NCBI GenBank assembly: GCA_019752125.1
Contig: JAIEMM010000012.1
Location: 3,437-67,436, forward strand
DNA length: 64,000 nucleotides
Source of the DNA: Patescibacteria group bacterium
Lineage (GTDB): Bacteria > Patescibacteriota > Minisyncoccia > Phycocordibacterales > SBAW01
Direction: 5' to 3'
Shown: piece after piece, positions 3,232 through 44,624 of the stretch
How the letters are laid out: the number at the start of each line of letters is the position of its first letter
How positions within the stretch are numbered: position 1 is the first letter of the stretch
The notes under the pieces: model-generated
Databases searched by the model: none
What the model saw: the letters and a program-made list of their open reading frames with translations, nothing else
What the model was told of the DNA's origin: nothing
Program-made: the position numbers and the translations under genes

Positions 3232-4638
3232 GTGAGAAGAATATTTTTTATTACAGTAATGTGTGCTGGGTTACTGTGCATTTTTATTGCGAGGGTGGAA
3301 ATGTATGTTTCAGATTGGAATAAACAGAGTTTGGTTGCGCTTACGCGTACGTTGCCGGAGAAAGGCCCCTCGACTCTGCTCGGGGCAGGTAAAAAAGTTG
3401 TTGTGGAGGGAAGGGTGGTTGCGGACCCGGATATGCGGGATACGACACTGCACGCGAATATTAAAGTTGAGACAATAGATGGCAAAAAAGAAACAGGTAC
3501 ACTCATTGCGTTTTTTCCGACTGATACAAAACTAGAATACGGCCAGCGCATTGTTGCAAAAGGAACACTTCGTCTACCCGACCCGTTTGAAACAGACAAC
3601 GGCGGCACATTCGACTACCCGCACTACCTACAGGTGCAAGGAATTTCAGCGATGCTTACAAGTGGTAAACTCGCGTCCAGCACGCCGGCTGGGTTTTCAC
3701 TACGAGGTTCACTTTTTAATCTTAAACATAGCTTCGACCGTTCACTGGAGAGAATTTTTGTTCCACCACAGGGCGCGTTGATGCAGGGAATTATTTTAGG
3801 TGAGAGACACGGCATCCCCGACACACTCAACCATGCGTTTATTGTGGCGAGCCTTATTCATATTGTCGTGTTGTCGGGACATGTATTTACTCTCATTACT
3901 GATGCAATAATGCGGACGCTTTCTTTCTTGCCCAAGAGACCGCGCTACGTTCTTGCCGCATTGTTTAGCGTGCTTTTTATAATGATGGTTGGAGCCTCAT
4001 CCGTTGCGCTGCGTGCAGGAATAATGGCCGGCATTGGCATGCTCGCACGTTTTTACAACCGCAATGCAGATGCGTTAAGAGCACTCTTTGTGGCAGTACT
4101 CATTATGGGTTTGTTAAATCCACCCGCACTTCTTTGGGACACATCTTTTATATTGAGTGTACTTGCGACATTTGGGCTCATCACACTCTCTCCTTTAGTA
4201 GAGAAATGGTTATTTTGGATACCCAAGCGCTTTGATCTGCGAGGAATCGCAACTTCAACACTTTCAGTACAGATTTTTATTCTGCCCACGCTTCTGTATT
4301 ACACGGGCACACTTTCATACTTTGCGTTGCCTGCAAATGTAATTGCTCTACCGGTTTTGCCGTGGGCGATGTTGTTTGGATTTCTTGCAGGGCTTTTTGG
4401 AATGTTGCCTGGCGTCCTCGGTTTGGTTCTCGCGTTCGTGCCCGCATTTTTCGCACAGCTCTTACTGCGCTGGATTATTTTTATTGCCCAAGCAGTTGAA
4501 GCAATTCCGCATTCAGCGACAGTTATCCACGCCTTCCCTCTATGGGCGGCGCTTCTGTGTTACATACCACTTACGTTTATTGCGTACGTGTCAGTTTTTC
4601 GAAACGTTCCTCGACGAGCGACCAGTTCAAGTTCTTAA
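3232..4638 (+). CDS. comEC: ComEC/Rec2-family DNA internalisation membrane protein (no MBL domain)
   Basis: GTG start; N-terminal OB-like DUF4131-type region then polytopic competence domain; 468 aa. Confidence 0.7.
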   Translation: MRRIFFITVMCAGLLCIFIARVEMYVSDWNKQSLVALTRTLPEKGPSTLLGAGKKVVVEGRVVADPDMRDTTLHANIKVETIDGKKETGTLIAFFPTDTKLEYGQRIVAKGTLRLPDPFETDNGGTFDYPHYLQVQGISAMLTSGKLASSTPAGFSLRGSLFNLKHSFDRSLERIFVPPQGALMQGIILGERHGIPDTLNHAFIVASLIHIVVLSGHVFTLITDAIMRTLSFLPKRPRYVLAALFSVLFIMMVGASSVALRAGIMAGIGMLARFYNRNADALRALFVAVLIMGLLNPPALLWDTSFILSVLATFGLITLSPLVEKWLFWIPKRFDLRGIATSTLSVQIFILPTLLYYTGTLSYFALPANVIALPVLPWAMLFGFLAGLFGMLPGVLGLVLAFVPAFFAQLLLRWIIFIAQAVEAIPHSATVIHAFPLWAALLCYIPLTFIAYVSVFRNVPRRATSSSS

Positions 4639-5176
4639 AAAATGCGTCCATGTATTTTCCTTTGCCTTGAGTTCCATAGTCCAAAAGGAATGCATGTTCC
4701 CAGACATCCAGAGCAAGCACGATAGGGAGGGTTACGAAGTGGCCTTGATGTTGTTCGCCTGAGAAACCTGCAAGAAGCTGCTGACCCTCAGCGTCCCAAT
4801 AAAGAATTGCCCAACCTGGTCCGCGCATATTTCCAATTGCTTTGAAGTACGGCTCGAAGTGTTCAACCTTCGTGTATTCCTTTTCAAATTGTTTTGCAAG
4901 TGAGCTACTTGGGGTGAGCGGAGTCGAACCCCCTTCAAACTGTGCGAAATAGAGTTCGTGCAAACGCATACCGCCAAATTCAAACGAGCGGCGGCGAATA
5001 AGTTCTGAAAGCGCGTGAGCGTTTGCCTCGCTGTCTTGTGCGTATTCAGGGATCTTTTTTGAAATTGCGTTGAAGTTTTTAACGTAGCCCTGATACAGAC
5101 CAATATGATCCTCTACAGATTTAGTCGAAATCCCATCAAGGGCGGGGATGTTAAAAGTTTTTGGTGTGTATTCCAT
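4577..5176 (-). CDS. Fe/Mn superoxide dismutase
   Basis: Fe/Mn-SOD motifs (HH..H, DVWEHAF...Y); likely start at MEYTPKTF (5176) rather than ORF start 5221; 3' end overlaps convergent comEC by ~60 nt. Confidence 0.85.
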   Translation of the reverse strand: MEYTPKTFNIPALDGISTKSVEDHIGLYQGYVKNFNAISKKIPEYAQDSEANAHALSELIRRRSFEFGGMRLHELYFAQFEGGSTPLTPSSSLAKQFEKEYTKVEHFEPYFKAIGNMRGPGWAILYWDAEGQQLLAGFSGEQHQGHFVTLPIVLALDVWEHAFLLDYGTQGKGKYMDAFFKNLNWSLVEERFEKLTRTQ

Positions 5177-5296
5177 ATGCCAACATTGTACACCGGACAC
5201 GTTGTATACAGGTTGGCGCACGAAGATATTTGCTATTTTTACAAAATGTTGTATTGTGTACCTCGGTATGTTTTCAGTACATCCTTTAATAAAGGA

Positions 5297-5674
5297 ATGT
5301 TAGCTATGAGTATATGCGAAATTGGGACGGCATCTAGGCGGAAACCTGGCCCTCGCTGTGGTTCTCCGAATGGGCAAGCTGTAAGAGACGCATTGGAGGC
5401 TACGAGGAGGCTCATGCTTGCAGGCAATCTTTTCCCCACCATGAAAGAGATTGCAGATGTGGCGGGCTATACCGAACGGCATATATATTATTGCTGGGGA
5501 ACGCGTGCAGATTTGCACCACGCGGTGCTCGACGGCGATCCTGTTTTTGCCGCAAAGTGTGGCAGAATACTGCTCTCGCAGATCGGTGTCCCAGACATGC
5601 CTCATAGGTCAGACGAACTTGACGCCTGGTTCGACGGCCTTTGCAGAAAGACCTTGTTGGATAAGATTGGATAA
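5297..5674 (+). CDS. small HTH protein, TetR-like N-terminal domain
   Basis: TMKEIADVAGYTERHIYYCWGTRADL resembles TetR HTH; internal ATG chosen because the 5' part of the ORF overlaps the SOD gene; followed by the 'gcgaccc..gggccgcc-T-run' terminator. Confidence 0.4.
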   Translation: MLAMSICEIGTASRRKPGPRCGSPNGQAVRDALEATRRLMLAGNLFPTMKEIADVAGYTERHIYYCWGTRADLHHAVLDGDPVFAAKCGRILLSQIGVPDMPHRSDELDAWFDGLCRKTLLDKIG

Positions 5675-5722
5675 TCAAAAAGCGACCCTCTCGGGCCGCC
5701 TTTTTTCTATGTAAATATTAGT

Positions 5723-5965
5723 TTAGATAAGACCAGCCTTTTTGAGGGTCTTGTATGCGCCGTTCTTGGCGATAGTCTTGAGGCCTTGAGTCGAGACAGT
5801 GACAGTGATGGTCTTGTTGAGCTCAGGGACGAAAATGCGCTTCTTCTGGAGGTTTACCTGCTTACGGACATTGCCAGTAGGGTTGAATTTTGTAGCACGA
5901 ATACGGTTGCTGTAGCCGCCAGCAACTAGAGAGCTTTTATTCGTGATGGGACAAGTCTTTGCCAT
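5723..5965 (-). CDS. rpmB: 50S ribosomal protein L28
   Basis: 80 aa MAKTCPITNKSS...typical L28. Confidence 0.85.
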   Translation of the reverse strand: MAKTCPITNKSSLVAGGYSNRIRATKFNPTGNVRKQVNLQKKRIFVPELNKTITVTVSTQGLKTIAKNGAYKTLKKAGLI

Positions 5966-6638: not shown

Positions 6639-6723
6639 GACAGCAAAAATTGTTCTGCTTGCGCTGGCCATTTATATATAGTAGATTGTTGGCAACGCCT
6701 TGAGGGCGTTTTTAATTCAAGAA

Positions 6724-7137
6724 ATGGCACGTATATCACAGCTTGTCCGCAAAGGACGCACACAATTGAAGAGCAAGTCGAAGTCACCGGCCCTTGGTCG
6801 TGGTTTCAACGTTCTCAAAAATCGTCCTGTGTTCTACTCGTCTCCATTCAAACGCGGAGTCTGCACGAAAGTAACGACTATGACTCCCCGCAAACCAAAC
6901 TCAGCTATCCGTAAGATTGCCCGTGTTCGCTTGACCAACGGTCAGGAAATCACCGCATACATCCCAGGTGAAGGCCACAACCTCCAGGAACACTCAGTGG
7001 TTATGGTTCGTGCAGGCCGTGTGAAAGACATCAACGTTCGTTACCAGATCGTGCGCGGTCGCCTCGATGCAGGTGCGGTTGAGAAGCGTAATGTTTCTCG
7101 CTCACGTTACGGTGTTAAGCGCTCAACTAAGAAATAA
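6724..7137 (+). CDS. rpsL: 30S ribosomal protein S12
   Basis: [12 protein letters not shown]...PNSAIRK...; start set at conserved N-terminus. Confidence 0.95.
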
Positions 7138-7142: not shown

Positions 7143-7613
7143 ATGCGTCGACCAGTTAAAAATCGCAATATCGTCGGTCCTGACATGAAGTTCAACTCAA
7201 CGAAGGTTGAGAAGTTCATCAACTCTGTTATGTGGGACGGCAAGAAGAGCACTGCTCGCAAGGTTGTCTACGATGCGTTCGATATCATTCAGGAGAAAAC
7301 TAAAGTAGAAAGCCCTCTCGAAATCTTTGAAGAAGCTATCCGCAACGTAGGTCCTGCAATGGAAATCCGTTCACGCCGTGTTGGTGGTGCAAACTACCAA
7401 GTTCCTCGCGAAGTTCGTCCAGAACGTAAGCAGGCTCTCGCGTACCGCTGGATACTCATTGCCGCTCGCGCTCGCAAGGGTATGCCTATGGCAAACCGCC
7501 TCGCAGAAGAAATCATTGCAGCATCTAAGAATGAAGGCCCTGCAATCAAGAAGCGCGAAGATACTCACAAGATGGCAGAATCAAACAAGGCGTTCGCACA
7601 CTTCGCCTGGTAA
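7143..7613 (+). CDS. rpsG: 30S ribosomal protein S7
   Basis: 156 aa with S7 signature ([13 protein letters not shown]...). Confidence 0.95.
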
Positions 7614-7629
7614 TTTCAAACACAAAAGA

Positions 7630-7660
7630 AAACACCGCCTCAAAAGGGCGGTGTTTTTAC
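7630..7660 (+). terminator. rho-independent terminator after rpsG
   Basis: caccgcc-tcaaaag-ggcggtg stem-loop followed by TTTTT. Confidence 0.7.
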
Positions 7661-7676
7661 ATGCTACATTTTTTGT

Positions 7677-8495
7677 ATGCCCTTAAGGTTGCGTGGGTTT
7701 ACGCTTATAGAGCTCCTTGTGGTTATTGCCATTATTGGTCTGCTTGGGGCCATTGTGATGGCCTCGCTCCAAAGTGCCCGCACAAAGGCGCGGCTGACTT
7801 CTGCAAAGGCGCAAGATGCAGCAATGCGAAATGGAATCGAACAGGTTGTGGGGCAGTGGCCTCTTGATGACTGTTCGGGCACGAACGCGAGCGACACCTC
7901 AGGTTCTGGTAACACGGGTGCATTTACAGGTAGTGGAAATACATGGGATACGGCCAACACTCCATATGGAACGGGATGTTCAGTGCTCTTAAATGGAAGT
8001 GGAGCGATTTCCGTTCCTGATAAAAGTACCTATGCGTTTGGAACAGGTGACTTTACGATGGCTGTTTGGATAAAGACAAATACTCAACAGACCGGAAGTA
8101 CAGGATTTATTGCAAAAAATTTAAGCGGCACAGGTCCTGGATTTGGAATCAGACCTAGTGGCGCAACAAATATTGAAATATGGCTGGCTGATGGCTCAAC
8201 GGCATCAAGCCCTAGCTGCACCAGCTGTAATTATGCTGACGGGAACTGGCATTTTATAGCAGGAACGCGAAGAAATTCTCAACTCAGTCTGTATTATGAC
8301 GGAGCTTTAGTTGTAACAGCAGCCTCAAGTCAAAATGTGACGAATGCACAGCCGCTTTACATAGGTTCGCGCGGAGGGACGACGTTCATTGGCAATGTGG
8401 ACGATGCGCGCCTCTACAGTGTTTCGATAAGCGCATATGAAATACGTGCGATGTACGCGCTTGGCGCTATCTTCCATGCGCTCGCACTTCGTTAG
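7677..8495 (+). CDS. prepilin-type (type IV pilin-like) protein with LamG/ConA-like C-terminal domain
   Basis: Short leader then GFTLIELLVVIAIIGLL prepilin cleavage/methylation motif; C-terminal ...DDARLYSVSIS... jelly-roll-like region. Confidence 0.7.
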   Translation: MPLRLRGFTLIELLVVIAIIGLLGAIVMASLQSARTKARLTSAKAQDAAMRNGIEQVVGQWPLDDCSGTNASDTSGSGNTGAFTGSGNTWDTANTPYGTGCSVLLNGSGAISVPDKSTYAFGTGDFTMAVWIKTNTQQTGSTGFIAKNLSGTGPGFGIRPSGATNIEIWLADGSTASSPSCTSCNYADGNWHFIAGTRRNSQLSLYYDGALVVTAASSQNVTNAQPLYIGSRGGTTFIGNVDDARLYSVSISAYEIRAMYALGAIFHALALR

Positions 8496-18509: not shown

Positions 18510-18530
18510 AACCAAACTCAATAAAAAAAT

Positions 18531-18566
18531 AAAAACTCTCGCCTCACGGCGGGAGTTTTGTTTCTT
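18531..18566 (+). terminator. rho-independent terminator after rplB
   Basis: ctcgcc-tcac-ggcggg stem then ttttgttt. Confidence 0.65.
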
Positions 18567-18589
18567 GCTCTTTGGAGAAAATATCCTAT

Positions 18590-18820
18590 AGTAACGCCTA
18601 GATAGTTCGGGGCCACACTCTACGCTAATGCTGGGATGCCTAGAATTGAAGGTATATGGAGGCCCCACCGTCCTTCGTGTTCCTTGTCCTTCGGCCAGCC
18701 GGGACCAGGGTGCCCGTAATCGCTATGCAGACAGACTCTTGGAACGGTATGTGTGTTGGAAATAGCGAACCCAGATTTTTCAGTTTTGCCTGCCTAGTCC
18801 TTTAGGCAGGTTTTTCTTTT
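18590..18820 (+). ncRNA. candidate small RNA / structured transcript ending in a + strand terminator (18789-18820)
   Basis: ~200 nt non-coding stretch after the rplB terminator, ending in cctgcct...aggcagg + T-run; no family recognised by eye. Confidence 0.25.
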
Positions 18821-18821
18821 G

Positions 18822-18851
18822 TAAAAAAGAAATCCCCGCTGCAGGGCGGGG
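18822..18851 (-). terminator. minus-strand terminator (ccccgc..gcgggg + T-run) after gene 18854-19198
   Basis: Hairpin immediately 3' of the minus-strand stop; near-identical copy at 19259-19287. Confidence 0.6.
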
Positions 18852-18853
18852 GT

Positions 18854-19198
18854 TTAATAGTCGTAGGAGGCGAGCTTGTCGAGGAATTTCATCAGATCGG
18901 AAACATATTCCTTGCCTAATGGAATGCTCGCAGATTCCGTCTCCTCTTTCATGGGATCTTCGTAGCACAGCTTCAGCGACTGGCCGTCGATGTAGACCTT
19001 CAGGTAAATCAGTGTGCTTGGTTTCCCCGGACTATCTTCATCCAGGAATCCAACCTGCACAGCTTCGACCTCGAGGTCGGGGTACAGAGGATGGGAGATC
19101 ATAGAGCACCAAATTCCCAAACCCTTTTTATAGCTAAGCCGTTGTTGCGTTTTTCGGTGGATATCTCCGAAAACGGCTTCAGCAACTTCATACGCCAT
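18854..19198 (-). CDS. hypothetical protein (114 aa), antisense insertion in r-protein cluster
   Basis: ATG with RBS gggaga; own terminator; no recognisable domain. Confidence 0.45.
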   Translation of the reverse strand: MAYEVAEAVFGDIHRKTQQRLSYKKGLGIWCSMISHPLYPDLEVEAVQVGFLDEDSPGKPSTLIYLKVYIDGQSLKLCYEDPMKEETESASIPLGKEYVSDLMKFLDKLASYDY

Positions 19199-19258
19199 AG
19201 AGCAATCTCCCGCGTTATGATTGCCATCTATTCTAGATATAAAAAGTTGTCACTGCAA

Positions 19259-19287
19259 GTAAAAGAAATCCCCGCTGCAGGGCGGGG
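19259..19287 (-). terminator. minus-strand terminator after gene 19297-19500
   Basis: Same aaaagaaatccccgctgcagggcgggg module as 18822-18851. Confidence 0.6.
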
Positions 19288-19296
19288 AAGGGTGTT

Positions 19297-19500
19297 TCAG
19301 GACAGCTCTTGAAGCTGTCTCTTCATGTGGCCACGCAGGTCAGCCTCGAGAGCCTGGGAAGTTGCGGTAACCCAGCACTCGACAAACTCGGCCTCTGTCT
19401 GTTCGCTGAACGGCTTGTACAGGCCGGCGCCCTTGTCGAGACCTTCAAGGTCTTGTGATACGGTCGCCTTTGAAATTGCAACTTCAGGTGCGTCAGTCAT
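19297..19500 (-). CDS. hypothetical small acidic protein (67 aa)
   Basis: Internal ATG 19500 has RBS aggaggg 8 nt upstream; own terminator; no recognisable domain. Confidence 0.4.
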   Translation of the reverse strand: MTDAPEVAISKATVSQDLEGLDKGAGLYKPFSEQTEAEFVECWVTATSQALEADLRGHMKRQLQELS

Positions 19501-19660
19501 CGGTCCTGCCCTCCTTCTAGGCTCTAGTATAGCGCACAGCACACCTGCCGGTAGACAGGTTTGACTCATAAGAGCCTACCTGCTAGTATCTCTGTACTTC
19601 CGTGCCGCAAGGTCTAGCCGCTCTTTGGCTACGACGGGCAGGGAATTTAATTTTGGAAAG

Positions 19661-23115: not shown

Positions 23116-23135
23116 TTTTTAAGAAATATGAAATT

Positions 23136-23163
23136 GGCCCCATGCGGGGCCTTTTTCTTTTTA
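23136..23163 (+). terminator. rho-independent terminator after rplE
   Basis: ggcccc-atgc-ggggcc then tttttcttttt. Confidence 0.75.
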
Positions 23164-23246
23164 TAAATCTACCTTGCTTTATGTTCCACAATTAGGCATA
23201 TTTCCTTTAGAGTTTTCGAGTACACCGTCCACACGAGGAGGATTCC

Positions 23247-23870
23247 ATGGACGTACATCATGAGCCTAAGCGGGCAGCGTTGAGTTCATATGGAGGAGGT
23301 GGAATAAGCCTCAACGGCCTGAACCGCGCGGAAGAGGATATCCTTGAAGGCGCATTCAGGACTGGCCACCACTGGGTCCGTATGGGGCAGAATGGCCGCA
23401 TCGAGCACACACCATCTTTCAATGCCTTGCCGAGTCCGGCTGACGATGACCGTATGCTCCCGTTTTGGAGGGAGGGTGAGAAAAAACCTCCTGTCCAACT
23501 GGAACTGTTCAGCCACGCTGAAACTGGTGACCAGCGCCTACACTCGAGTCGCTCATTCACCATCCAGCACCTGTGCGGCTACGGCTACACGCCGGAGAAG
23601 TACAAGGCGCAAGCTGCCCTCCTTGAGAGTTGGGGGTTCGAGTGTCTACGTTCCCGCCGGGGCAAGACTGGAGAGTTCTGGGAAATCTGGTTCTTGCCTG
23701 GTGTTTGGGCCGCCAAGGGCAGTCTAAAAACGGCAGTGCATCGACTCCCACAGAAAGAGCGGAACGAAGAGACTCAAGCAAAGCTTGCACTTGAATTTAT
23801 CCGTCGTAACGCAAGCTTCGGCACCTTGGACGTATCGGTTCAGCGTCTTGCCCAAGTGCTGGACGACTAA
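23247..23870 (+). CDS. hypothetical protein (207 aa), cassette gene 1
   Basis: ATG ORF; followed by cassette terminator; no recognisable domain. Confidence 0.5.
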   Translation: MDVHHEPKRAALSSYGGGGISLNGLNRAEEDILEGAFRTGHHWVRMGQNGRIEHTPSFNALPSPADDDRMLPFWREGEKKPPVQLELFSHAETGDQRLHSSRSFTIQHLCGYGYTPEKYKAQAALLESWGFECLRSRRGKTGEFWEIWFLPGVWAAKGSLKTAVHRLPQKERNEETQAKLALEFIRRNASFGTLDVSVQRLAQVLDD

Positions 23871-23893
23871 CATTCACGTGGCGACCCCGCAAG

Positions 23894-23946
23894 GGCCGCC
23901 CTTTTTCTTTTGACAAAGAAGTAGTGGGTAGGTAGGGTGGTTTCAG
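23894..23946 (+). repeat. 53-nt repeat copy A: terminator 3' half + promoter (TTGACA-N17-TAGGGT-ggtttcag)
   Basis: Identical to 24344-24396; TTGACA at 23910-23915, TAGGGT at 23933-23938. Confidence 0.7.
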
Positions 23947-23969
23947 ACTGCAACGTAAGGAGGTTCAAC

Positions 23970-24314
23970 ATGTCCGACTGGCTCGATCAGCTCCCATTAT
24001 TGCCCAAAAGTAAGGGGCGGTTGGAACATAAGGAGAGTTGGCCTGAAAAGCTGGCGCTTCAGGTGTTCGATCGGAAAGTACCTACCGACCAAAGGACCCA
24101 CGGTAACGCACTTTTCCAGATCCGCTCCGTGCTCGACCCTGTCACCGTGCAGGAAGACATCACCCACGTAAGGTCGTCAGCCCCTTTGCCTTTCTCGGAG
24201 CGCGATCAGCAGGTGTTCCTTGCGGTAATCCAATGGCTCGGCACTAATATTGGCCGAGGCTTCATGAGCGACTTTCAAAAGCAGCTGGACTCTGAATTTG
24301 AGCGTCGGCGTTAA
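23970..24314 (+). CDS. hypothetical protein (114 aa), cassette gene 2
   Basis: RBS aaggagg before ATG 23970; the upstream GTG (23937) lies inside the promoter repeat. Confidence 0.5.
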   Translation: MSDWLDQLPLLPKSKGRLEHKESWPEKLALQVFDRKVPTDQRTHGNALFQIRSVLDPVTVQEDITHVRSSAPLPFSERDQQVFLAVIQWLGTNIGRGFMSDFQKQLDSEFERRR

Positions 24315-24343
24315 TGTAAGAGCGACCCATCCAGGCCGCCCTT

Positions 24344-24396
24344 TTTCTTTTGACAAAGAAGTAGTGGGTAGGTAGGGTGGTTTCAGTTGATCAACG
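24344..24396 (+). repeat. 53-nt repeat copy B: terminator 3' half + promoter
   Basis: Identical to copy A; TTGACA 24360-24365. Confidence 0.7.
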
Positions 24397-24409
24397 AAAG
24401 GGGCTAGTT

Positions 24410-25045
24410 ATGCTCAGCATAGAGGAAAGATTTGTCGGAGCGTACATGTATGCGCTCAGTGAGGCGCTCATGCAGACGCGCGTAAAGGCTGTTGTGGACA
24501 CGGAAGCATCCGCGCTCTTCACTTTGGTAAAGTCGATTACGAATGGCGGTCTCACAAGCAAAAAGAAGCCTCACTCGCTCATTGAGCTACCCATCATTTT
24601 TGCTCTTCGCTTCCAGCGTGACCCCACAATGCGTACGCAGTTTGTGAAACACCAATTTCTTGAGTGTTCGAGGCAGGAGAAACGGAATGCACATGACCGT
24701 GCAATTCTCCGTAGTGCGTATCTGGCTGAGTTGCTTGAGGGTAGGGGTTCGAAAGGTGTCCAAGATTTCGTTCTTCGGAGCTACAGCACCGGCGTGCTCT
24801 TTACGACGGATGTCGGCGGGTTAGCGAAGGACGGGTTCTTCTTCCCTCTACCGGGCGGTGAGAAATCGATCTTTCCTTTTGTGCCGGGGGACGCACGTAT
24901 GTTCACCGCGGCATGCTTTGGGGCGCTCTACGGTCCAAAGAAGCTTACCTTTGCGGACTGGCAGGAAAAGCTGATCGAGAATCACTCCGGAATCAAGGAT
25001 CTCGGCCGCATGCTCTTCAGGGCAGCTTATGGTTACGAGGTCTAG
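24410..25045 (+). CDS. hypothetical protein (211 aa), cassette gene 3
   Basis: ATG 24410 after gaaagggg; no recognisable domain. Confidence 0.5.
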   Translation: MLSIEERFVGAYMYALSEALMQTRVKAVVDTEASALFTLVKSITNGGLTSKKKPHSLIELPIIFALRFQRDPTMRTQFVKHQFLECSRQEKRNAHDRAILRSAYLAELLEGRGSKGVQDFVLRSYSTGVLFTTDVGGLAKDGFFFPLPGGEKSIFPFVPGDARMFTAACFGALYGPKKLTFADWQEKLIENHSGIKDLGRMLFRAAYGYEV

Positions 25046-25056
25046 AACGATACAGG

Positions 25057-25110
25057 CGACCCATCCGGGCCGCCTTTTTCTTTTGCAATAAATTTTTTGG
25101 GTGGTATGGT
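25057..25110 (+). promoter_or_regulatory. cassette terminator (gcgacccatccgggccgcc + T-run) and degenerate promoter (TTGCAA-N16-TATGGT)
   Basis: Related to copies A/B but diverged after the T-run. Confidence 0.5.
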
Positions 25111-25167
25111 TGGCGCGGTTTGCCTCTCGCCAGAAAGGAGGGGTTAGTTCTACGTCAGGAGACCGTT

Positions 25168-26028
25168 ATGTCCAAGTCAACCGTTCTGCGTCATCCTTTG
25201 GCAGCACAGGGTGCTGTAATTCACGATGTTAGGAACTTTAAACACTGGGTCTCACTCTGGGATGAAATGTGGAAAAAGACTCCCGTCCAGAGCGAGTATG
25301 CAGAAGGTCTGCTACACGCAATCTTCAGCCCCACCCATACGATTTCTGAGCTTCGGGAAGTGTTCCATATCTGCGCCGTCCTTGCTGATGGACACAACTG
25401 TGAACGCTATTTCGTTGCGGAAGGGGAGAAGTACGGTGACTTTAGTCTTGCAGACATCGATTCGCCGCATTTGAACTACCATCCTCGTTGCAACTTGGCT
25501 CGGCGGGCATGGAGGGAGCTCTGCAACAACATGTTTGTCAGAGACACCTACAAGTCCCAATACACGTTGGCTCAGCTCTACGACTTCAGTCAGGGGATGG
25601 AGCCAAATGTGGTCGCGGAGGACATGCTCAGGCTGTTCCATCCTTCGCCTCCATATATGACTTCTCCAGACCATAGAAACTTCTACGGCAATACCAAGGA
25701 GGCGGGGAAGCACATCGAGACCTTTAAGCGTTTCCTGCGAGAGCTGTGGTGCCTGCATGATCCTGAGCGAGTGCCTAAGTATCTGCGTGAGCTGAGGGTG
25801 CGTTCCATCCCACATCTCGTCTGGTCGGGTATGGCCCCGGAGCTCATGAGGGACACTCCGGAAGTCTCTATGGAGGATGAGAATTGGCCTTACGATGAAA
25901 TCCTTGAGTATCTCAAGAGCAGGATTGCGTTCGGCGCGAAGGGCTTGTTGTCCAAGCAGCTTGCCAGCGGATCAGAGCTGACGATGCTCTATATCCAGTT
26001 CACTGCTCGTCGGAAGCTGCACAAGTAG
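25168..26028 (+). CDS. hypothetical protein (286 aa), cassette gene 4
   Basis: ATG 25168 preceded by gaaaggagg/caggag RBS; the longer ORF-track start overlaps gene 3 in another frame. Confidence 0.55.
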   Translation: MSKSTVLRHPLAAQGAVIHDVRNFKHWVSLWDEMWKKTPVQSEYAEGLLHAIFSPTHTISELREVFHICAVLADGHNCERYFVAEGEKYGDFSLADIDSPHLNYHPRCNLARRAWRELCNNMFVRDTYKSQYTLAQLYDFSQGMEPNVVAEDMLRLFHPSPPYMTSPDHRNFYGNTKEAGKHIETFKRFLRELWCLHDPERVPKYLRELRVRSIPHLVWSGMAPELMRDTPEVSMEDENWPYDEILEYLKSRIAFGAKGLLSKQLASGSELTMLYIQFTARRKLHK

Positions 26029-26042
26029 CGACCGTCGATGCG

Positions 26043-26072
26043 GGCGGCCCCAAAAAGGCCGCCTTTTTCTTT
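26043..26072 (+). terminator. cassette terminator D (ggcggcc...ggccgcc + T-run)
   Basis: 7-bp GC stem followed by tttttctttt. Confidence 0.7.
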
Positions 26073-26126
26073 TGCAAATCGAAATTTTAGAAATATTTCA
26101 GTACTCATTTTGCTATTCTCGTCAGA

Positions 26127-26193
26127 GCTGGCAGCACGGTGCGGCACAGGATTGCTAATCCAGGCGTCGAAGGTTCGAGTCCTTCTGCCAGCG
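26127..26193 (+). ncRNA. tRNA-like element / probable pseudo-tRNA (67 nt; good acceptor and T arms, collapsed D-arm; nominal anticodon GCU)
   Basis: GCTGGCA/TGCCAGC acceptor pairing, GAAGG-TTCGAGT-CCTTC T-arm, TTGCTAA loop; only 13 nt where the D-arm should be; no CCA. Confidence 0.35.
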
Positions 26194-26263
26194 TACGTTG
26201 ACCTTAGTAGCTTTGCGGAAGTATCATTACTAACGAGGATAATCCTCTGGCGCTGGCAGAAAC

Positions 26264-26295
26264 AAAACCCCCGTTTGAGCGGGGGTTTTTGTTTT
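26264..26295 (+). terminator. strong rho-independent terminator (aaaaccccc-gtttgag-cgggggttttt)
   Basis: Ends the tRNA-like transcription unit. Confidence 0.75.
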
Positions 26296-26318
26296 ATATG
26301 GCGGAGTATAGAATTTGT

Positions 26319-26347
26319 TTGACTTCCAGGGTGGGGTCAAGTATATT
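26319..26347 (+). promoter_or_regulatory. candidate promoter for rpsN-secY block (TTGACT-N17-TATATT)
   Basis: Near-consensus hexamers; followed by hairpin+T-run (26352-26378) and a ~115-nt leader. Confidence 0.55.
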
Positions 26348-26493
26348 GCTTGAAGCCCATCAGGGCTCCTTTTTTCTGTAAGGTGCCGCTTAGTCGCAAG
26401 GCGAGGCATACCCCCAGAATCATCCTTCGACAGGCTCAGGATAAATAACCAGAGCTCGATCGGAGAAAAGATAAAGAAAGGGATACTATATCC

Positions 26494-26679
26494 ATGGCAA
26501 AGAAATCTACAGTCGCACGCTCAAACAAGACCCCGAAGTTTAAGTCGAGGGTCGTTCGCCGTTGCTTCCGCTGTGGTCGCAAGCGCGCCTTTATGCGTGA
26601 CTTCGGTATGTGCCGCGCTTGCTTCCGTGAAGCAGCCAACGAAGGTCTTATTCCGGGCGTCCGCAAATCATCTTGGTAA
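26494..26679 (+). CDS. rpsN: 30S ribosomal protein S14, Zn-ribbon (type Z)
   Basis: 61 aa with CxxC...CxxC. Confidence 0.9.
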
Positions 26680-39846: not shown

Positions 39847-40004
39847 GGGAATGTAGATAAAAATCTGCCTGTATACTTCTTGTGTGAGCATTGGACATCG
39901 ACATCAATCACTCCGCCGTAGGGGAGTGATTAAGACAAAGAACAATAACTTCATATTTAGTATCGGAAGAATTGGGGTCAGGTACCAAATAAATTGAAAA
40001 GTTA

Positions 40005-40032
40005 TGGTGTGATCAAAAACCGCCCTTGAGGC
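40005..40032. terminator. bidirectional terminator (accgcc-cttga-ggcggt + T-run)
   Basis: Read directly. Confidence 0.7.
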
Positions 40033-40095
40033 GGTTTTTGTATTTTGTGGACGTCGCACGAAAAACTTTGTTTTGGAGTGGTATACAATACTGTC

Positions 40096-40653
40096 ATGTC
40101 TTCACAGCGATCAACCTTTGCTTCAAAAATTAAATGGAATGAAGTAACGTGGTATTCAAAACTAGGAGCAATAATTTTTTTCATTGGTGTGGCGCCCGCG
40201 CTTTCTTTTTATATAGGGATGCAGTACCAAGCAGCGACACAACCATTTACACCTCATATTTCTGACCTACATAAGGCAGCTGGAGTTCATAGAGGAGAAA
40301 TACTAGTGTCTGACTCTACGACAGTATTCACTTTAAGTGGAAAACTCGTAGAAGAACAATTTTTTGGCCCACCAAATTATGGTGAAAGTCCACAGACGGA
40401 TTCAAAACAGAATATGCTTATGCTTCTTTTATCTAAACCTGTAAATGTACAAGGAAATGAAACAAATTTTGTAAATAATGAATATTACCCAAATATAAAT
40501 AAAATTCAGCTTGAGCTTGTTGGTAGTCCAATAGTGGATGCACTGGTTGGTAAAGAGATAACAGTGAGCGGAACTTTCCATGACGCTCACAATGCACACC
40601 AGCACACTCCAGTGTTGCTCAAGGTGGAGACGATCACTGCTGGTTCGAAGTAA
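40096..40653 (+). CDS. hypothetical membrane-anchored protein
   Basis: ATG 40096; one N-terminal TM; start lies 8-14 nt after a TATACAAT -10-like element. Confidence 0.4.
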   Translation: MSSQRSTFASKIKWNEVTWYSKLGAIIFFIGVAPALSFYIGMQYQAATQPFTPHISDLHKAAGVHRGEILVSDSTTVFTLSGKLVEEQFFGPPNYGESPQTDSKQNMLMLLLSKPVNVQGNETNFVNNEYYPNINKIQLELVGSPIVDALVGKEITVSGTFHDAHNAHQHTPVLLKVETITAGSK

Positions 40654-40684
40654 TAGGTCAGAAATCTTTCTATCGAAAAAACAC

Positions 40685-40713
40685 CCTAATTGGGTGTTTT
40701 TTAACTATTGTGG
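40685..40713. terminator. bidirectional terminator (aacaccc-taatt-gggtgtt)
   Basis: Read directly. Confidence 0.7.
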
Positions 40714-40923
40714 AGGAGGTCTCAGGAAGTTGGAACCAACTGGAAGCGCTTGTATTTGAGTGGTACGGCATCCTATCGAGCTCCAAACTCGTGCCCCAGA
40801 GGGCATAAAACGAGCCACACCACACGTTATCTGCGAAACGTAGGGTCACATAGGAGTTATGCAACCATGTAGGGTAATAGGAAACTCCCTCTATGGGTCA
40901 CATAGAGGGAGTTAACGAGAGAC

Positions 40924-41184
40924 TTAACCAGGGGAGTTTGCCGGATCGCGATCGCCTGGGAATGTGCGCTCTTCCTGAATGCGCGCACTCTCTTTAAGCT
41001 GGATTTTCACCGAGCCGCCGTTGGCACCCAATGCTCTTTCGAGGACGCCACCTTTTGTGGCCTTTTCTTTGGTCGTGAATGTTTTAACGACCTGGTGGGT
41101 TTTATTTTTGAACAATTCCCACTTTTCCTTGCCCTCGTTGAACCCGAGTGTGTACTGCGGTAGCGGAGGTAATTTTTTACCCAT
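40924..41184 (-). CDS. DUF2188-like small protein
   Basis: 86 aa; KWELFKNKTHQVVKTFTTKEKA...GGSVKIQLKESARIQEERTFPGDRDP pattern. Confidence 0.45.
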   Translation of the reverse strand: MGKKLPPLPQYTLGFNEGKEKWELFKNKTHQVVKTFTTKEKATKGGVLERALGANGGSVKIQLKESARIQEERTFPGDRDPANSPG

Positions 41185-41266
41185 AGCTATTAATTAATAT
41201 TACGTACGCGCAAAGCAGTTCGCAGGGGTGAGCCCGGGGCGTTCCGGGCGCCGCACTGCGTGGTCG

Positions 41267-41728
41267 TTAAGACCAGGGAGACGTAACAGCGAGTGGGAGT
41301 ACGTTAGGGAAGCGGTCGCCCACCTTGGGTTTCCACGTGTCCGCTAAGTATCGTTCCACAGCATCAAGCTTGGAGGAGTGAACCGGTGCCCAAGTCACGA
41401 ACAAGCCGAGGTGCTTGTAGGCCATGATAGTTGGGTCGTCGCGGTGGGATGCGAGGCGGTCGCGGATGATTCCTTGACCGATGCGCACTACCGCTGGGCT
41501 CAATCCGCCGTGCCAGATGATGTAGACCCCAACCATATCGTCGAAATGGGTATGACCCAGATTGACCGTAGGAAGGGGACACCAGCCGTTCGTACACTGC
41601 TGCCATGAGGCTGTTTGCATAAGTACGTCGGGGATAATCGAACGGGTTGTTAATGAGCGGGCATGGTAAGCTTTAGTTGTAAGACTTTCGCGATCTACCG
41701 TCCTAAGAAACGCCCTCCGGGCAGACAA
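41267..41728 (-). CDS. hypothetical protein, possible GIY-YIG-like nuclease fold (start uncertain; alternative ATG at 41620)
   Basis: GVYIIWHGG...VVRIGQG.IRDRLASH resembles GIY...YIG...R..H. Confidence 0.3.
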   Translation of the reverse strand: MSARRAFLRTVDRESLTTKAYHARSLTTRSIIPDVLMQTASWQQCTNGWCPLPTVNLGHTHFDDMVGVYIIWHGGLSPAVVRIGQGIIRDRLASHRDDPTIMAYKHLGLFVTWAPVHSSKLDAVERYLADTWKPKVGDRFPNVLPLAVTSPWS

Positions 41729-41859
41729 TCAGCGGGCTTACTCGCCCTAAACCTTCGCAGGAGCGTCGGTTCTACTTCATATGATACTCACTTTGGGGCT
41801 TTTGTCCAGAGGCTGTACAAGAGATGGACACGGGGATAAGCTGGGGATATAATGGGGAT

Positions 41860-42507
41860 ATGCATGAGATTCAAAAAGTGCTCCTCACCATCCTTCAAGA
41901 GAGGGGAATACAGGTGCTTCCACCTTTACGAAAACTTGGCGAACTGACTGGCAAGACCCTTTCCGCGCAACAGGTCAAACACCACTTAGAACAACTACAG
42001 AAGAAAGGATTTATTTCAATAGATAAAAATACAAAAAAGATTGAAATCACAGTTGGTACTGAAAAAAAATCGCAAAAACAATCTTTCTATACACTCCCGC
42101 TGTATGGCGCAGTTAACTGTGGCCCGGCCTTGAGTCTGGCAGAACAAATACCTGAGAGTTTTATAAAAATTTCTTCAAATATTCTTAAGGGTTTTAGATC
42201 CGAGAATCTTTTTGTTGTAAGGGCAAGCGGAGATTCAATGAATAAGGCTGTTGTAGGAGGTAAAAGAATTGAAGATGGTGACTTTTTAGTTGTAGATACT
42301 TCAAAAGTTAACATTCGGGGTAAGGGGGAAATAGTTCTTTCTATTATTGATGGAGCGGCAAATATTAAAAGATTATATAAAGAACAAGATTCTTTTGTTT
42401 TGGTTTCAGACTCCACTAAAGATTATCCTCCAATCTATATTTCAATAAGTGATGATTTTTCAGTAAATGGAACTGTGGTTGCAGTGATGAAAAAGCCAAA
42501 AGGATAG
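41860..42507 (+). CDS. lexA: LexA-like repressor (winged-helix N-domain + S24 peptidase domain)
   Basis: S24 Ser-Lys dyad context (ASGDSMNKA...IVLSI); LexA-type wHTH N-terminus. Confidence 0.6.
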   Translation: MHEIQKVLLTILQERGIQVLPPLRKLGELTGKTLSAQQVKHHLEQLQKKGFISIDKNTKKIEITVGTEKKSQKQSFYTLPLYGAVNCGPALSLAEQIPESFIKISSNILKGFRSENLFVVRASGDSMNKAVVGGKRIEDGDFLVVDTSKVNIRGKGEIVLSIIDGAANIKRLYKEQDSFVLVSDSTKDYPPIYISISDDFSVNGTVVAVMKKPKG

Positions 42508-42528
42508 GGCTAAAGTTCCAAGAGTAAT

Positions 42529-42726
42529 TTATCTCCCCAATAGTCTATCAATCTTTTCTTCGACGTTTCTAAATTTGTCTTCAAAGTAGCTCCATACGAT
42601 GTAGAGAATTAGACCTGCCCCTGCAAAAGTTTCTACTGTATATGAGAAACTCTGGGTGCCAGCGATAAGCCATGCTACGAGGAGAAATAAACAAATAGCC
42701 ACCCAGTTCCAAATTTTATGTTTCAT
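42529..42726 (-). CDS. small 2-TM membrane protein
   Basis: 65 aa, two hydrophobic helices; no other support. Confidence 0.3.
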   Translation of the reverse strand: MKHKIWNWVAICLFLLVAWLIAGTQSFSYTVETFAGAGLILYIVWSYFEDKFRNVEEKIDRLLGR

Positions 42727-42744
42727 GCGAATTAATTAACTGGT

Positions 42745-42895
42745 AACAAAAAGCCCGCCGCGGGTAGTGGCCGAAGCCACTCATGCAAGTTTCCCTGCAC
42801 GGCCGGTGAAGGCAGACCCCACGACGGGTTTTCTGGCCTTCACCGGACTTTCGACCTTGCCGATAGGGAAGCTATCGGGTTAGGTCCTTTTTATT
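42745..42895 (+). ncRNA. candidate structured RNA/leader with long imperfect hairpins and a terminator (42853-42895) upstream of the AbiV-like gene
   Basis: gtggc-cgaa-gccac tetraloop hairpin; ccggtgaaggc...gccttcaccgg 11-bp arms; gacc..cgatag-ggaagc-tatcg..ggtc + T-run. Confidence 0.3.
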
Positions 42896-42942
42896 CAGTT
42901 GTGCATTTATGATACGTCATTTCAGTTATTAGTAAACGATGG

Positions 42943-43638
42943 TTGAATGGAGGGGTGATTACCAACCAGAAGCTGGATAGAATGGCATTTTTGGCCTTCT
43001 GCAATGCAATTCGTTTGCACGAAGATGCGATAGAACTCTACAAGATCAAGAGCTACTCATCGGCTTTCTTTTTGTCGGTTTTGTCACAAGAAGAGATTGG
43101 GAAAATGCATTTGATAAATGATTATACTTGGCAGCGAGGCACAAGCGATGATCCAAAAGCATACGCTAAAGGTGTCGAAAAAATGTTTGTGGAAGCAATT
43201 TTTCTACATAAACTAAAGCAAGCTCATTTTTTACTAAATTCTCCCATAGAAAATAATTATTCGGCTCGTGGAAGGAGGATTATGGAAGAAGCGTGGAAGG
43301 GGGTACTGGATGGTGAAAAACAAAATGCAGTTTACGTCGGTTTTGGTAGAAAGAACGGGAAAATAGATACTTCTGGGCCAATCAAACACCCATGGCAAGT
43401 TACCGAAAAAGAAGCAGAAACTCAGATCACTAAAATGAATGATTATCTATTAGTATTTGGTCTCGGTCTTCGCTACACCAACTTCGTTTTTGAGAACGAA
43501 GATATAGAATATATGTGGAAGGGAAAAAAGTTTCTCCGTAAAATTTCGTCTCTGTGGAAGAGTTACAGCAGGTCAGCAAAGAAACAAATTAAAACTTATC
43601 AAAAACTGCTTAAAGAAAATATCGTCAACGTCTCCTGA
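42943..43638 (+). CDS. AbiV-like (HEPN-type) abortive-infection candidate
   Basis: N-terminal ...AIELYKIKSYSSAFFLSVLSQEEIGK... resembles AbiV family. Confidence 0.35.
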   Translation: MNGGVITNQKLDRMAFLAFCNAIRLHEDAIELYKIKSYSSAFFLSVLSQEEIGKMHLINDYTWQRGTSDDPKAYAKGVEKMFVEAIFLHKLKQAHFLLNSPIENNYSARGRRIMEEAWKGVLDGEKQNAVYVGFGRKNGKIDTSGPIKHPWQVTEKEAETQITKMNDYLLVFGLGLRYTNFVFENEDIEYMWKGKKFLRKISSLWKSYSRSAKKQIKTYQKLLKENIVNVS

Positions 43639-43661
43639 TAGCGTTTTATAATAAAACTAAG

Positions 43662-44198
43662 ATGACTAAAAAGAACTTGTCACAGAAAGCAAAACTCTCT
43701 CTGGAGGAAAAGGCTAAAAAGGATAAGGAATTTGGGGGTGGGGTTGGTCGTGGCAACAAGTTGGAGCGCACTCGAGGAATATTTAGGACCTGGCTATTAG
43801 TGCCAAGGAATTTCCTTGGTGCCAACGAACAAATCTTCAGGGCTCTCGGGTTTATAGATGCAGAAACTATCGAATTGTATTCAATAAAATCTCAGGCAGA
43901 ATTTGCAGAAAAGTTCGGGGTAGCCGAACCCACTCTTTCTCGCTGGAAGGGGGAGATAGAAAAAGCAGGCAATGATCTCGCCGATTTTAGGCAGGAAATG
44001 AAACACTTGAGCATCAACCTTATGGGTGCTTTGTATCGAAAGGGATTGAGTACGGGAGATCCAGCTGCTATAAAACTTTGGCTCCAAGTAATGGAGGGAT
44101 GGAATGAACGTACTGTGCACCAGGTTGATGTAAGCGGGTACCAACTCTCAGAGGAGGAAAAAGCTGAATTGGATCAACTAATGGAAGCAAACTTATAA
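43662..44198 (+). CDS. phage terminase small-subunit-like HTH protein
   Basis: SQAEFAEKFGVAEPTLSRWKG HTH and ...DPAAIKLWLQVMEGW... as in TerS (Terminase_2-type). Confidence 0.4.
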   Translation: MTKKNLSQKAKLSLEEKAKKDKEFGGGVGRGNKLERTRGIFRTWLLVPRNFLGANEQIFRALGFIDAETIELYSIKSQAEFAEKFGVAEPTLSRWKGEIEKAGNDLADFRQEMKHLSINLMGALYRKGLSTGDPAAIKLWLQVMEGWNERTVHQVDVSGYQLSEEEKAELDQLMEANL

Positions 44199-44241
44199 AA
44201 TATAAAAGTTTTATAAACAGGGGATAACCCATCAAGTTTTA

Positions 44242-44269
44242 TTGGGAAATTTTTAGTGCTTGGTATAAT
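44242..44269 (+). promoter_or_regulatory. candidate promoter (TTGGGA-N16-TATAAT) upstream of small ORF + recombinase
   Basis: Consensus -10 with TG-like extension. Confidence 0.5.
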
Positions 44270-44350
44270 TGGGTTACGAAATAACTTAAAGAGCGACCGT
44301 TCTTTAAGGCCGGTATAATCCGGAATTTGGTGGGAAGAATAGGCAAAGGG

Positions 44351-44394
44351 CCCCCAAACTCAATCTGAATTTATATTCGGACTAAGTTTGGGGG
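44351..44394. repeat. 44-bp imperfect palindrome (cccccaaact...ttata...agtttggggg): terminator or recombinase att-like site
   Basis: 10-bp perfect outer arms plus 7/10 inner matches around central TTATA; ~230 nt upstream of the recombinase. Confidence 0.35.
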
Positions 44395-44428
44395 CGTTCG
44401 TTTTCTCACCAGCGAAGCCTCCGACAAA

Positions 44429-44623
44429 ATGTTGTCGGTTGAAGAATGTAGAAAATATGTCGGTAACGACATGTCAGACAAGGAAGTGGAGAATCTTCGA
44501 GATACTCTCTACTCGTTTTCGAGCATGGTGCTCGAGGCCTACTTTGATGCCCAAAAGAGGGCGGGGAATAGTGGTTTGCTTTCGGTTCCAAAGCACGACA
44601 GCGTGAAGGAGGAAAAGAATTGA
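44429..44623 (+). CDS. hypothetical small protein co-transcribed with recombinase
   Basis: 64 aa, stop 1 nt before the recombinase ATG. Confidence 0.3.
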   Translation: MLSVEECRKYVGNDMSDKEVENLRDTLYSFSSMVLEAYFDAQKRAGNSGLLSVPKHDSVKEEKN

Positions 44624-44624
44624 T

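Follow-up and report, generated by a model that had tools for sequence, protein, structure and literature searches.

The ribosomal-protein cluster in the 64-kb window of Patescibacteria DNA analysed here (the window being the whole stretch) contains, between rplE and rpsN, a 3.38-kb spacer with four plus-strand open reading frames (ORFs), g1 to g4. Comparison with related loci, denoted L001, L002 and so on, revealed that this junction is a slot filled by different accessory genes in different genomes. Its variability is specific to the junction and its content is diverse; it is built of modular units, members of the g3 and g4 families are found only there, and its cargo is offset in composition from the flanks. 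The explanation that we favour, with moderate confidence, is a hypervariable slot that lies at an operon boundary throughout the lineage, is occupied by units resembling phage morons and turns over in content, probably by recombination.

The S10-spc ribosomal-protein cluster is a standard example of conserved gene order, and the ribosomal-protein genes of the window follow one another on the plus strand at distances of a few bases, the exception being the interval from rplE to rpsN. A genome scan using the rplE protein as query, with one genome per species, yielded 80 loci, mostly from Candidatus Adlerbacteria and other Paceibacteria of the Candidate Phyla Radiation (CPR); a metagenome scan with rplE contributed 80 further loci. 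In the 65 complete cases the rplE-rpsN spacer had a median length of 1169 bp (range 71–5916 bp), 58 spacers exceeding 200 bp and 35 exceeding 1 kb, and in several genomes rpsN was not reached within 6 kb of rplE. The independent metagenome set gave the same picture. As a control, the 18 consecutive junctions from rplD to secY were measured in up to 100 loci. Sixteen of the 18 never exceeded 245 bp, and the sole other expanded junction was rplB-rpsS (median 478 bp, 16 of 69 loci above 1 kb). An earlier, sequence-only reading of the window had described a recently acquired insert within the most conserved operon block. The site is instead a boundary between operons, expanded and variable in almost all of the genomes examined (58 of 65 above 200 bp), and the window represents a single state of a variable slot that is old and present throughout the clade; a second such site is at rplB|rpsS.

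Across the relatives the slot spans 0.07–6 kb and contains zero to eight small, mostly orphan, cytoplasmic proteins. When crudely called spacer ORFs were compared by blastp, 124 of 149 were singletons. Pfam matches of spacer ORFs comprise ABC transporters, reverse transcriptases, IMP cyclohydrolase-like proteins, peptidases, glycosyltransferases, helix-turn-helix regulators and a ribbon-helix-helix (RHH)/YafQ pair. No defence theme emerged from the relatives' slot cargo, the PADLOC matches of 92 spacer proteins being dominated by two reverse transcriptases. A comparison by eye of contigs that end just after rplE with those that start just before it, meant to reveal assembly breaks at the slot, showed no asymmetry and is not used as evidence. 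A description of a rplE-rpsN hotspot was not found in the searchable literature.

At the second expanded junction, the rplB-rpsS slot of the window (18510–19660, 1.15 kb) contains a twice-repeated hairpin, AAATCCCCGCTGCAGGGCGGGG, together with two minus-strand orphan ORFs (18854–19198 and 19297–19569) that have no Pfam match. The rplB-rpsS slot of L087 (positions 2700–4310 of that locus) carries a Y1 (IS200/RAYT-like) transposase gene between identical palindromes, CCAATGTGCGACTCCCGGGAGTCGCACATT.

The slot of the window is bounded on the left by rplE (ribosomal protein L5; 22579–23115, on the plus strand like all slot features below), a conserved anchor with 60–94% identity to rplE of 160 related loci. 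Its terminator T0 (23136–23162, called by the terminator scan, with a fold energy of −17.8 kcal/mol), formed by GGCCCCATGCGGGGCC plus TTTTTCTTTTT, closes the rpsS-rplE transcription unit, and an equivalent terminator follows rplE in L001, L002, L006 and L012. The predicted strength of T0 argues against read-through from the ribosomal operon into g1–g4. The four ORFs follow at 23247–23870 (g1, 207 aa), 23970–24314 (g2, 114 aa), 24410–25045 (g3, 211 aa) and 25168–26028 (g4, 286 aa), each with a Shine-Dalgarno-like sequence upstream; NCBI annotates them as hypothetical proteins K2Q00_03330 to 03345 of 'Patescibacteria group bacterium'. The conserved right anchor is rpsN (26494–26679), which encodes a zinc-ribbon S14 protein of 61 aa that is 100% identical in L001 and L002. 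The sequence-only reading had given the coordinates and sizes of the four ORFs correctly, and the compositional comparison that it had proposed found the insert to be distinct from its flanks: GC content is 0.53 in the spacer insert versus 0.47–0.49 in the flanks, and the GC content at third codon positions (GC3) is 0.60–0.64 in g1–g4 versus a mean of 0.50 (standard deviation 0.08) for the ORFs of the window. When the 69 ORFs of the window are ranked by GC3, all four genes fall in the top 7.

Downstream of each of g1–g4 comes a GC hairpin with the run TTTTTCTTTT, starting at about 23881, 24322, 25056 and 26044. T1 (23880–23911, −12.5 kcal/mol) has the form GGCGACCC-CGCAA-GGGCCGCC with an A.C mismatch, then a T-run. 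T2, after g2 (24322–24351), is weak because its predicted stability is just −6.9 kcal/mol. T3, after g3 (25055–25085), has a predicted stability of −13.3 kcal/mol, and T4, after g4 (26043–26073, −17.2 kcal/mol), has a perfect GGCGGCC/GGCCGCC stem, where homology to L002 resumes. These four hairpin-plus-T-run modules agree with the earlier claim of a terminator after every gene, with the weakness of T2 noted. The TTTTTCTTTT tail with its T-run is generic among the terminators of this genome, including unrelated ones elsewhere. Hairpins of the family GCG[AG]CC..GG[TC]CGC with a T-run were counted 19 times within 97 kb of rplE-rpsN spacer sequence versus twice in 676 kb outside it, an enrichment of approximately 66-fold that is far above chance. 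T2 is a mosaic, in which the left arm and loop resemble T3 while the right arm and 45 nt downstream are as in T1; in three hairpins of the window the left arm is 'A-type' and the right arm 'B-type', hence the A.C mismatch. A single slot-type hairpin of the window falls outside the rplE-rpsN spacer, at 5677–5710 (GCGACCCTCTCGGGCCGCC plus T-run, bidirectional), between the convergent ORFs 5105–5674 (plus strand) and 5723–5965 (minus strand).

The 53-nt block before g2 (copy 1, 23894–23946) recurs with 100% identity before g3 (copy 2, 24334–24386), where it forms the promoter-like element of that gene, and the two copies bracket g2. Copy 1 consists of the 3' arm of T1, the T-run, TTGACA (23910–23915), N17, TAGGGT (23933–23938) and GGTTTCAG; the exact duplication of TTGACA-N17-TAGGGT-GGTTTCAG had been recognized from the sequence alone. 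The promoters proposed in the same way for g2–g4 held up in part. Their −35 boxes (TTGACA, TTGCAA) are good and the g4 element is conserved, but the sigma-70 consensus scan was negative for all three, the −10 boxes being TAGGGT or TATGGT, and the g4 spacing is 16 nt rather than 17. The g4 promoter-like element, TTGCAA-N16-TATGGT, and the 5' untranslated region (UTR) that follows it (together 25083–25167) are conserved in L012 and L090. Although the g4 proteins of these loci and the window are 38–45% identical, the upstream region retains TTGCAATAAATT, GTGGTA(T/G)GGT, a GGCG..CGCC hairpin and the Shine-Dalgarno sequence, and this conservation is the best available evidence that the promoter-like elements function. 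A possible promoter for g1, TTGCTT-N17-CATATT (23174–23202), is weak; it was read from the sequence, and the consensus scan did not call it.

Units in all genomes of the window's subclade follow a common order: a stop codon, a GCG(A/G)CC-loop-GG(T/C)CGC hairpin, TTTTTCTTTTG, a −35-like box (TTGACA or TTGCAA) that abuts the T-run, a −10-like box 16–17 nt farther on, a UTR with a Shine-Dalgarno sequence, and ATG. The layout of one gene, one terminator and one promoter-like element per unit was upheld.

Presence and absence of these units was evaluated in the closest relatives, L001 and L002 (93–94% ribosomal-protein identity and about 85–87% DNA identity in the flanks), both of which are devoid of g1–g4 at the rplE-rpsN junction. 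The L001 slot contains one 75-aa ORF, and the L002 slot contains a 142-aa ORF and an IMP-cyclohydrolase-like gene. The latter (positions 2519–3289 of L002, PF07826) is metabolic, and its terminator/promoter grammar is the same. Homology between the window and L001 ends at the rplE stop codon (23115) and restarts at the rpsN promoter (26314). Homology to L002 passes the rplE terminator to 23171 and restarts at 26043, the first base of the T4 hairpin; T4, a unit with a tRNA-like element, and its terminator T5 are common to both, and everything upstream of T4 is replaced. The homology breaks thus coincide with terminator modules, at 23115 or 23171 on the left and 26043 or 26314 on the right.

Homologues of individual genes recur in other slots with different neighbours. 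A g3 homologue is the only slot gene in L087, L088, L089 and L139 and is also found in the L006 slot, in each case between the genes for L5 and S14/S8. The g4 homologue of L090 is flanked by two other orphans in the slot, and that of L012 is a pseudogene split in two frames beside the RHH/YafQ pair. In L012 the RHH antitoxin/YafQ-like toxin pair and the g4 pseudogene occupy 6652–7134 and 7232–8114, an instance of cassette decay in place. Further cassettes are common to other pairs of loci, e.g., L001–L006 and L003–L006. Similarity of the cargo does not track similarity of the hosts: the g3 proteins of the window and L087 are 60% identical and those of the window and L006 44% identical, versus 59% and 81% for the ribosomal proteins, and for g4 the values are 38% versus 82% with L090 and 44% versus 64% with L012. 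Judged from these identities, with three genomes per family, g3 and g4 have had a history separate from that of their hosts.

The sequence-only reading had described four unrelated proteins without a recognizable domain. Searches of Pfam, NCBIfam, PHROGs and PADLOC with g1–g4 returned no match at E ≤ 1, and tblastn against phage and plasmid records returned no relatives; pattern scans of viral contigs for g1, g3 and g4 were empty, as was a pattern scan of genomes for g4. The absence of known domains is thereby confirmed, whereas g1 turned out to have hundreds of family members in Patescibacteria. Homologues were identified with HMMER in an exhaustive search covering 1.84 billion representatives. 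A word-indexed search with the four proteins concatenated was empty, which is a false negative, since the HMMER and single-protein searches found homologues; exact-sequence look-ups of g1, g4, rplE and secY were likewise empty although the proteins are present in the NCBI-derived set.

The g1 family comprises about 280 clusters (E < 1e-10) of ~200-aa proteins with strongly conserved motifs, and its named members are all Patescibacteria hypothetical proteins. The protein has two domains, the C-terminal one with a ferredoxin-like fold, and homologues in Kaiserbacteria, Falkowbacteria and other groups lie in unrelated chromosomal surroundings. The g1-family profile also matches 10 IMG/VR contigs (L171–L180), several of which are 100–390 kb long, where the neighbouring genes encode DNA polymerase, clamp loader, SbcCD, RecA-like and ParB proteins. 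The top PHROG families of these contigs are replication and repair families without virion hallmarks, and a phage link for the g1 family therefore cannot be claimed; the contigs may represent pieces of CPR chromosomes or else large extrachromosomal elements.

The remaining families are rare. The HMMER search with g2 found only g2 itself, making it a near-orphan; a weak relative, matching at the C-terminus (28% identity over 98 aa), is a 179-aa ORF in the L006 slot. For g3 the search found two relatives, at 60% and 44% identity, and the family is confined to the rplE-rpsN slot (L087/L088/L089/L139 at 60% and L006 at 44%). For g4 it found two relatives at 40% and 48% identity, the latter a fragment, and a profile search of 5.8 billion proteins yielded three family members, in the window, in L090 and as the L012 pseudogene, all in the slot. 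An AlphaFold2 model of g4 from a three-sequence alignment had a predicted local distance difference test score of 50 and was unusable. The g1–g4 proteins are cytoplasmic and represent strain-level accessory functions rather than parts of the translation apparatus. That the genes are accessory had been proposed from the sequence, and the outcome named there as refuting it, housekeeping homologues at this junction in most relatives, was not observed. The accompanying suggestion of effector/immunity or defence functions is unsupported, with PADLOC, PHROGs, and phage and plasmid databases all empty. High expression, which the same reading called probable, likewise found no support, given the strong rplE terminator and the poor −10 boxes.

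Downstream of T4 lies a tRNA-like element (26127–26193), which the sequence-only reading had noted near the end of the insert and which is real though marginal: it scores 29.6 bits against the Rfam tRNA model, whose gathering score is 29, and ARAGORN is negative. The element has a 7-bp acceptor stem, a reduced D arm, a GCU anticodon loop and a perfect T arm; positions 8–9 are missing and the anticodon stem contains one mismatch. The copies in the window and L002 differ by three substitutions in 67 nt, of which the one in a stem preserves pairing, and the tRNA-like unit as a whole is 87% identical between the two, similar to the flanks. No further copy was found in 179 other loci or in viral contigs. 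The unit is closed by the strong terminator T5 (26264–26297; hairpin 26264–26289, −21.7 kcal/mol), and beyond it rpsN has its own promoter-like site, TTGACT-N17-TATATT, both as had been described. Three roles for the element were considered and rejected. It is not an attachment-site remnant, there being no adjacent integrase and no repetition of its 3' end at the other border (repeats of at least 12 nt from its 3' part are absent from the left border); it does not duplicate the resident tRNA-Ser(GCT), despite its GCU anticodon loop; and a tRNA as integration target does not fit the findings that ARAGORN detects no tRNA in 50 related loci and that the element is confined to the window and L002.

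The right boundary of the slot is the segment 26314–26493, at which homology to L001, L006 and L012 resumes and which contains the rpsN promoter (TTGACT-N17-TATATT, 26319–26347) and a conserved structured leader. This leader of ~150 nt is conserved across 48 distinct relatives; downstream of the promoter come the hairpin AGCCCnnnnGGGCT and CCTTTTTTCTG. A predicted long-range helix pairs UUCUG..GGUGC with GC..ACC..CAGAA, and compensatory changes occur at 6 of its 12 predicted pairs, e.g., a pair that is GC in 30 sequences and CG in 12. Most relatives have an extra hairpin, ACUCCC..GGGGAGU, that encloses the Shine-Dalgarno sequence; the window has a variant 3' half common to L003, L013 and L040. 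The leader has no match in Rfam and is a candidate autoregulatory attenuator for a ribosomal protein (S8 or S14), i.e., a candidate new regulatory RNA.

Taken together, we propose that the ribosomal-protein cluster of Candidatus Adlerbacteria and related Paceibacteria has been split into transcription units at rplE|rpsN and rplB|rpsS, and that the span from the rplE terminator to the rpsN promoter and leader would serve as a long-lived slot for accessory genes. The slot of the window would then hold four self-contained expression units, in each of which an ORF is preceded by a promoter-like element and a 5' UTR bearing a ribosome-binding site and is closed off by an intrinsic terminator; a small tRNA-like RNA unit would come after the four. 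Units would be gained, lost and exchanged among lineages through recombination with two kinds of anchor. The extremely conserved flanking ribosomal genes and the rpsN leader may act on incoming DNA; rpsN is 98–100% identical across the subclade of the window. The short terminator/T-run/promoter modules common to neighbouring units may permit deletion or duplication of single units, and recombination anchored in such modules predicts that g2 should lie between identical 53-nt repeats, as observed. The window encodes a ComEC-type Competence domain protein and RecJ, which make transformation plausible.

Several points weigh against this proposal. The loci were chosen by similarity to rplE, and the sample consists mostly of Paceibacteria. 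The description of one promoter and one terminator per gene is only partly demonstrated, as the −10 boxes fail the consensus scan and T2 is weak. The discordance of g3 and g4 with their hosts, drawn from three genomes per family, could also come from old paralogous cassettes. The order g2 then g3 is kept in the window and L006 and the tRNA-like unit is common to L002, and part of the pattern is therefore due to vertical descent with loss. Homologues of g1 are not bound to the slot, and a slot-specific pool therefore misses some of the cargo. Lastly, neither a recent exchange event with mapped breakpoints nor a same-species pair with alternative cargo was found.

Vertical descent can be taken further, to an ancestral multi-gene array eroded by differential loss and fast divergence with no horizontal exchange at all. 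The age and clade-wide occurrence of the slot are consistent with such an array, as are the g2-g3 order common to the window and L006, the match of the tRNA-like unit and of T4 and T5 to L002 at flank-level identity, and the g4 pseudogene of L012, a case of decay in place. We nevertheless consider this explanation unlikely, because g3 and g4 similarity runs opposite to ribosomal-protein similarity and the GC3 of g1–g4 is off the host mean. Moreover, L001 and L002 carry other genes instead of g1–g4, and gains are therefore needed besides losses; with 124 of 149 ORFs being singletons, the ancestral array would also have to be implausibly large.

The regular hairpins raise the alternative of site-specific cassette exchange, integron-like or HUH/Y1-transposase-like, in which the hairpins would be recombination sites first and terminators second. 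Units would be inserted and excised at the hairpin loop, and arrays would be built in this manner. A related hairpin occurs at every unit boundary in the subclade of the window, with ~66-fold enrichment in the slot; the two arm types occur in all four left/right combinations, and the three A.C-mismatch hairpins look as if assembled from different parents. The identity of the 53-nt repeats breaks at the border between loop and right arm, the exact point at which L002 homology restarts is the T4 hairpin's first base, and the rplB|rpsS slot of L087 has a Y1 transposase gene amid identical GCGAC..GTCGC palindromes. On the other hand, no integrase or transposase is located in or beside the slot of the window, L001, L002, L003, L006 or L012, and the two serine recombinases of the window are 18 and 28 kb away, beside the tmRNA and tRNA-Ser genes. 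The boundaries have no integron core sites, every unit carries a promoter-like element, in contrast to integron cassettes, and the hairpins have canonical T-runs like unrelated terminators elsewhere in the genome. The arm types are one transition apart, and their combinations are explained by point mutation and duplication because of this single difference. Hairpin-directed exchange is for these reasons distinctly doubtful. The same low probability attaches to its broader form, an undescribed integrase-less or HUH/Y1-transposase-driven system that stacks self-expressed orphan genes into a chromosomal 'moron array' or gene nursery, located at operon boundaries of the Paceibacteria ribosomal-protein cluster, with terminators as portable junctions.

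A single recent insertion of a mobile element bearing g1–g4, whether island, prophage remnant or transposon, would account for a contiguous block of homogeneous GC3 (0.60–0.64) that is absent from the nearest relatives and has a tRNA-like element at one end. It is nonetheless highly improbable, given that no recombinase, no inverted or direct border repeats and no att-like duplication of the 3' end of the tRNA-like element were found, and nothing similar occurs in phages, plasmids or viral contigs. Homologues of g3 and g4 occur singly, with other neighbours, in the slots of other genomes, and the tRNA-like unit is also in L002, which has no g1–g4. Least probable of all is an assembly artefact in which the spacer of a co-occurring Adlerbacteria strain was joined via the conserved ribosomal genes: spacer GC3 is above that of the flanks and hypervariable sites between near-identical sequences are prone to chimeras, but two precise crossovers would be required, 26043–26493 matches L002 at the identity of the flanking genes, the same architecture is present in many independent assemblies, and the slot phenomenon holds even if this contig is chimeric. 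We thus retain the lineage-wide slot with recombining moron-like units as the favoured explanation.

Other parts of the window also contain features of note. A segment of low GC content (0.39–0.44) at about 40000–46500 adjoins the tmRNA (transfer-messenger RNA) gene (46120–46494, minus strand). It contains genes for an S24/LexA-like peptidase (41824–42504), an AbiV/HEPN protein (42982–43635) and a large serine recombinase (44625–46235), together with a LOOT RNA (42766–42886, minus strand; Rfam, 86.8 bits), and is probably a small integrated element with the tmRNA gene as attachment site. The second large serine recombinase gene (54706–56034, minus strand) lies directly beside tRNA-Ser(GCT) (54504–54593), and the region 54504–56034 may be another integration site. 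A tRNA-Ile with the anticodon TAT encoded directly, which is unusual in bacteria, is located at 49061–49133 (minus strand).

The locus is of more interest as a recurring slot than as a four-gene insert. Genes of the S10-spc cluster are markers that underlie CPR/Patescibacteria phylogenomics and genome binning, and a slot among them implies that ultra-reduced episymbiont genomes still reserve places for flexible genes. It suggests that genes could pass between lineages in a simple way, with the genome's most conserved DNA as the anchor for recombination. The slot also provides a fixed address from which the accessory genes of uncultured Adlerbacteria strains can be recovered by polymerase chain reaction or long reads, and it marks out a set of rare orphan families, namely g2, g3 and g4 together with the genes beside them in relatives, which carry their own expression signals. 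These orphan families are candidates for functions in host interaction or conflict.

Among known systems, the units of the slot recall phage morons such as gene 15 of HK97, which are single genes with their own promoter and terminator situated between adjacent genes of a conserved co-oriented order, with a GC content unlike that of their neighbours and a presence in some relatives and absence in others (Cumby, Davidson and Maxwell 2012, PMC3594210). The g1–g4 units likewise have their own terminators, deviant GC content, and presence or absence between collinear relatives; upstream they carry promoter-like elements whose −10 boxes fail the consensus scan. They differ in that the slot is located in a bacterial chromosome, that units are stacked at one fixed site reused across a clade, and that their expression is predicted from sequence. 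Residence in a phage or prophage was not found, the flanks being ribosomal-protein genes and the PHROGs, phage-record and viral-contig searches being empty. An integron array also combines co-oriented, small, unrelated and often orphan genes with an imperfect hairpin after each and content shuffled between genomes, whereas the slot is without intI, attI or attC core sites, its hairpins are canonical terminators, and its units have their own promoter-like elements with no common Pc. An integron array was rejected, as the spacer nowhere contains a RYYYAAC ... GTTRRRY pair 40–160 nt apart; no recombinase ORF is present in 23116–26493, the only recombinases in the window being the serine recombinases at 44.6 and 54.7 kb.

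In position, the slot resembles hypervariable region 2 (HVR2) of SAR11, a streamlined lineage, where the region is bounded by the 23S and 5S rRNA genes and contains about 50 or more genes over tens of kilobases with largely cell-surface functions (Grote et al. 2012, PMC3448164). Both are variable regions at a fixed position in a streamlined genome, amid extremely conserved and otherwise contiguous translation genes, and both have strain-specific content. The slot, in contrast to HVR2, is 0.07–6 kb long, and its zero to eight small, mostly orphan, cytoplasmic proteins each have a terminator/promoter module. More generally, transfer hotspots flanked by core genes were reportedly described by Oliveira et al. 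in 2017, most of them without recognizable mobile-element genes and with homologous recombination in the flanks as the favoured route. The slot agrees with such hotspots in having the same core-gene pair around different accessory genes in different genomes, with junction-specific variability and a cargo whose history departs from that of the host (in a sample of three genomes per family); it differs in its location within the S10-spc cluster and in its very regular internal promoter/terminator grammar. In Gammaproteobacteria and Bacilli, insertions into ribosomal clusters are rare and occur between operons (PMC8046335). We conclude that the rplE-rpsN slot is a hypervariable hotspot of a known kind, furnished with moron-like units, and that both its place and its lineage are unexpected.

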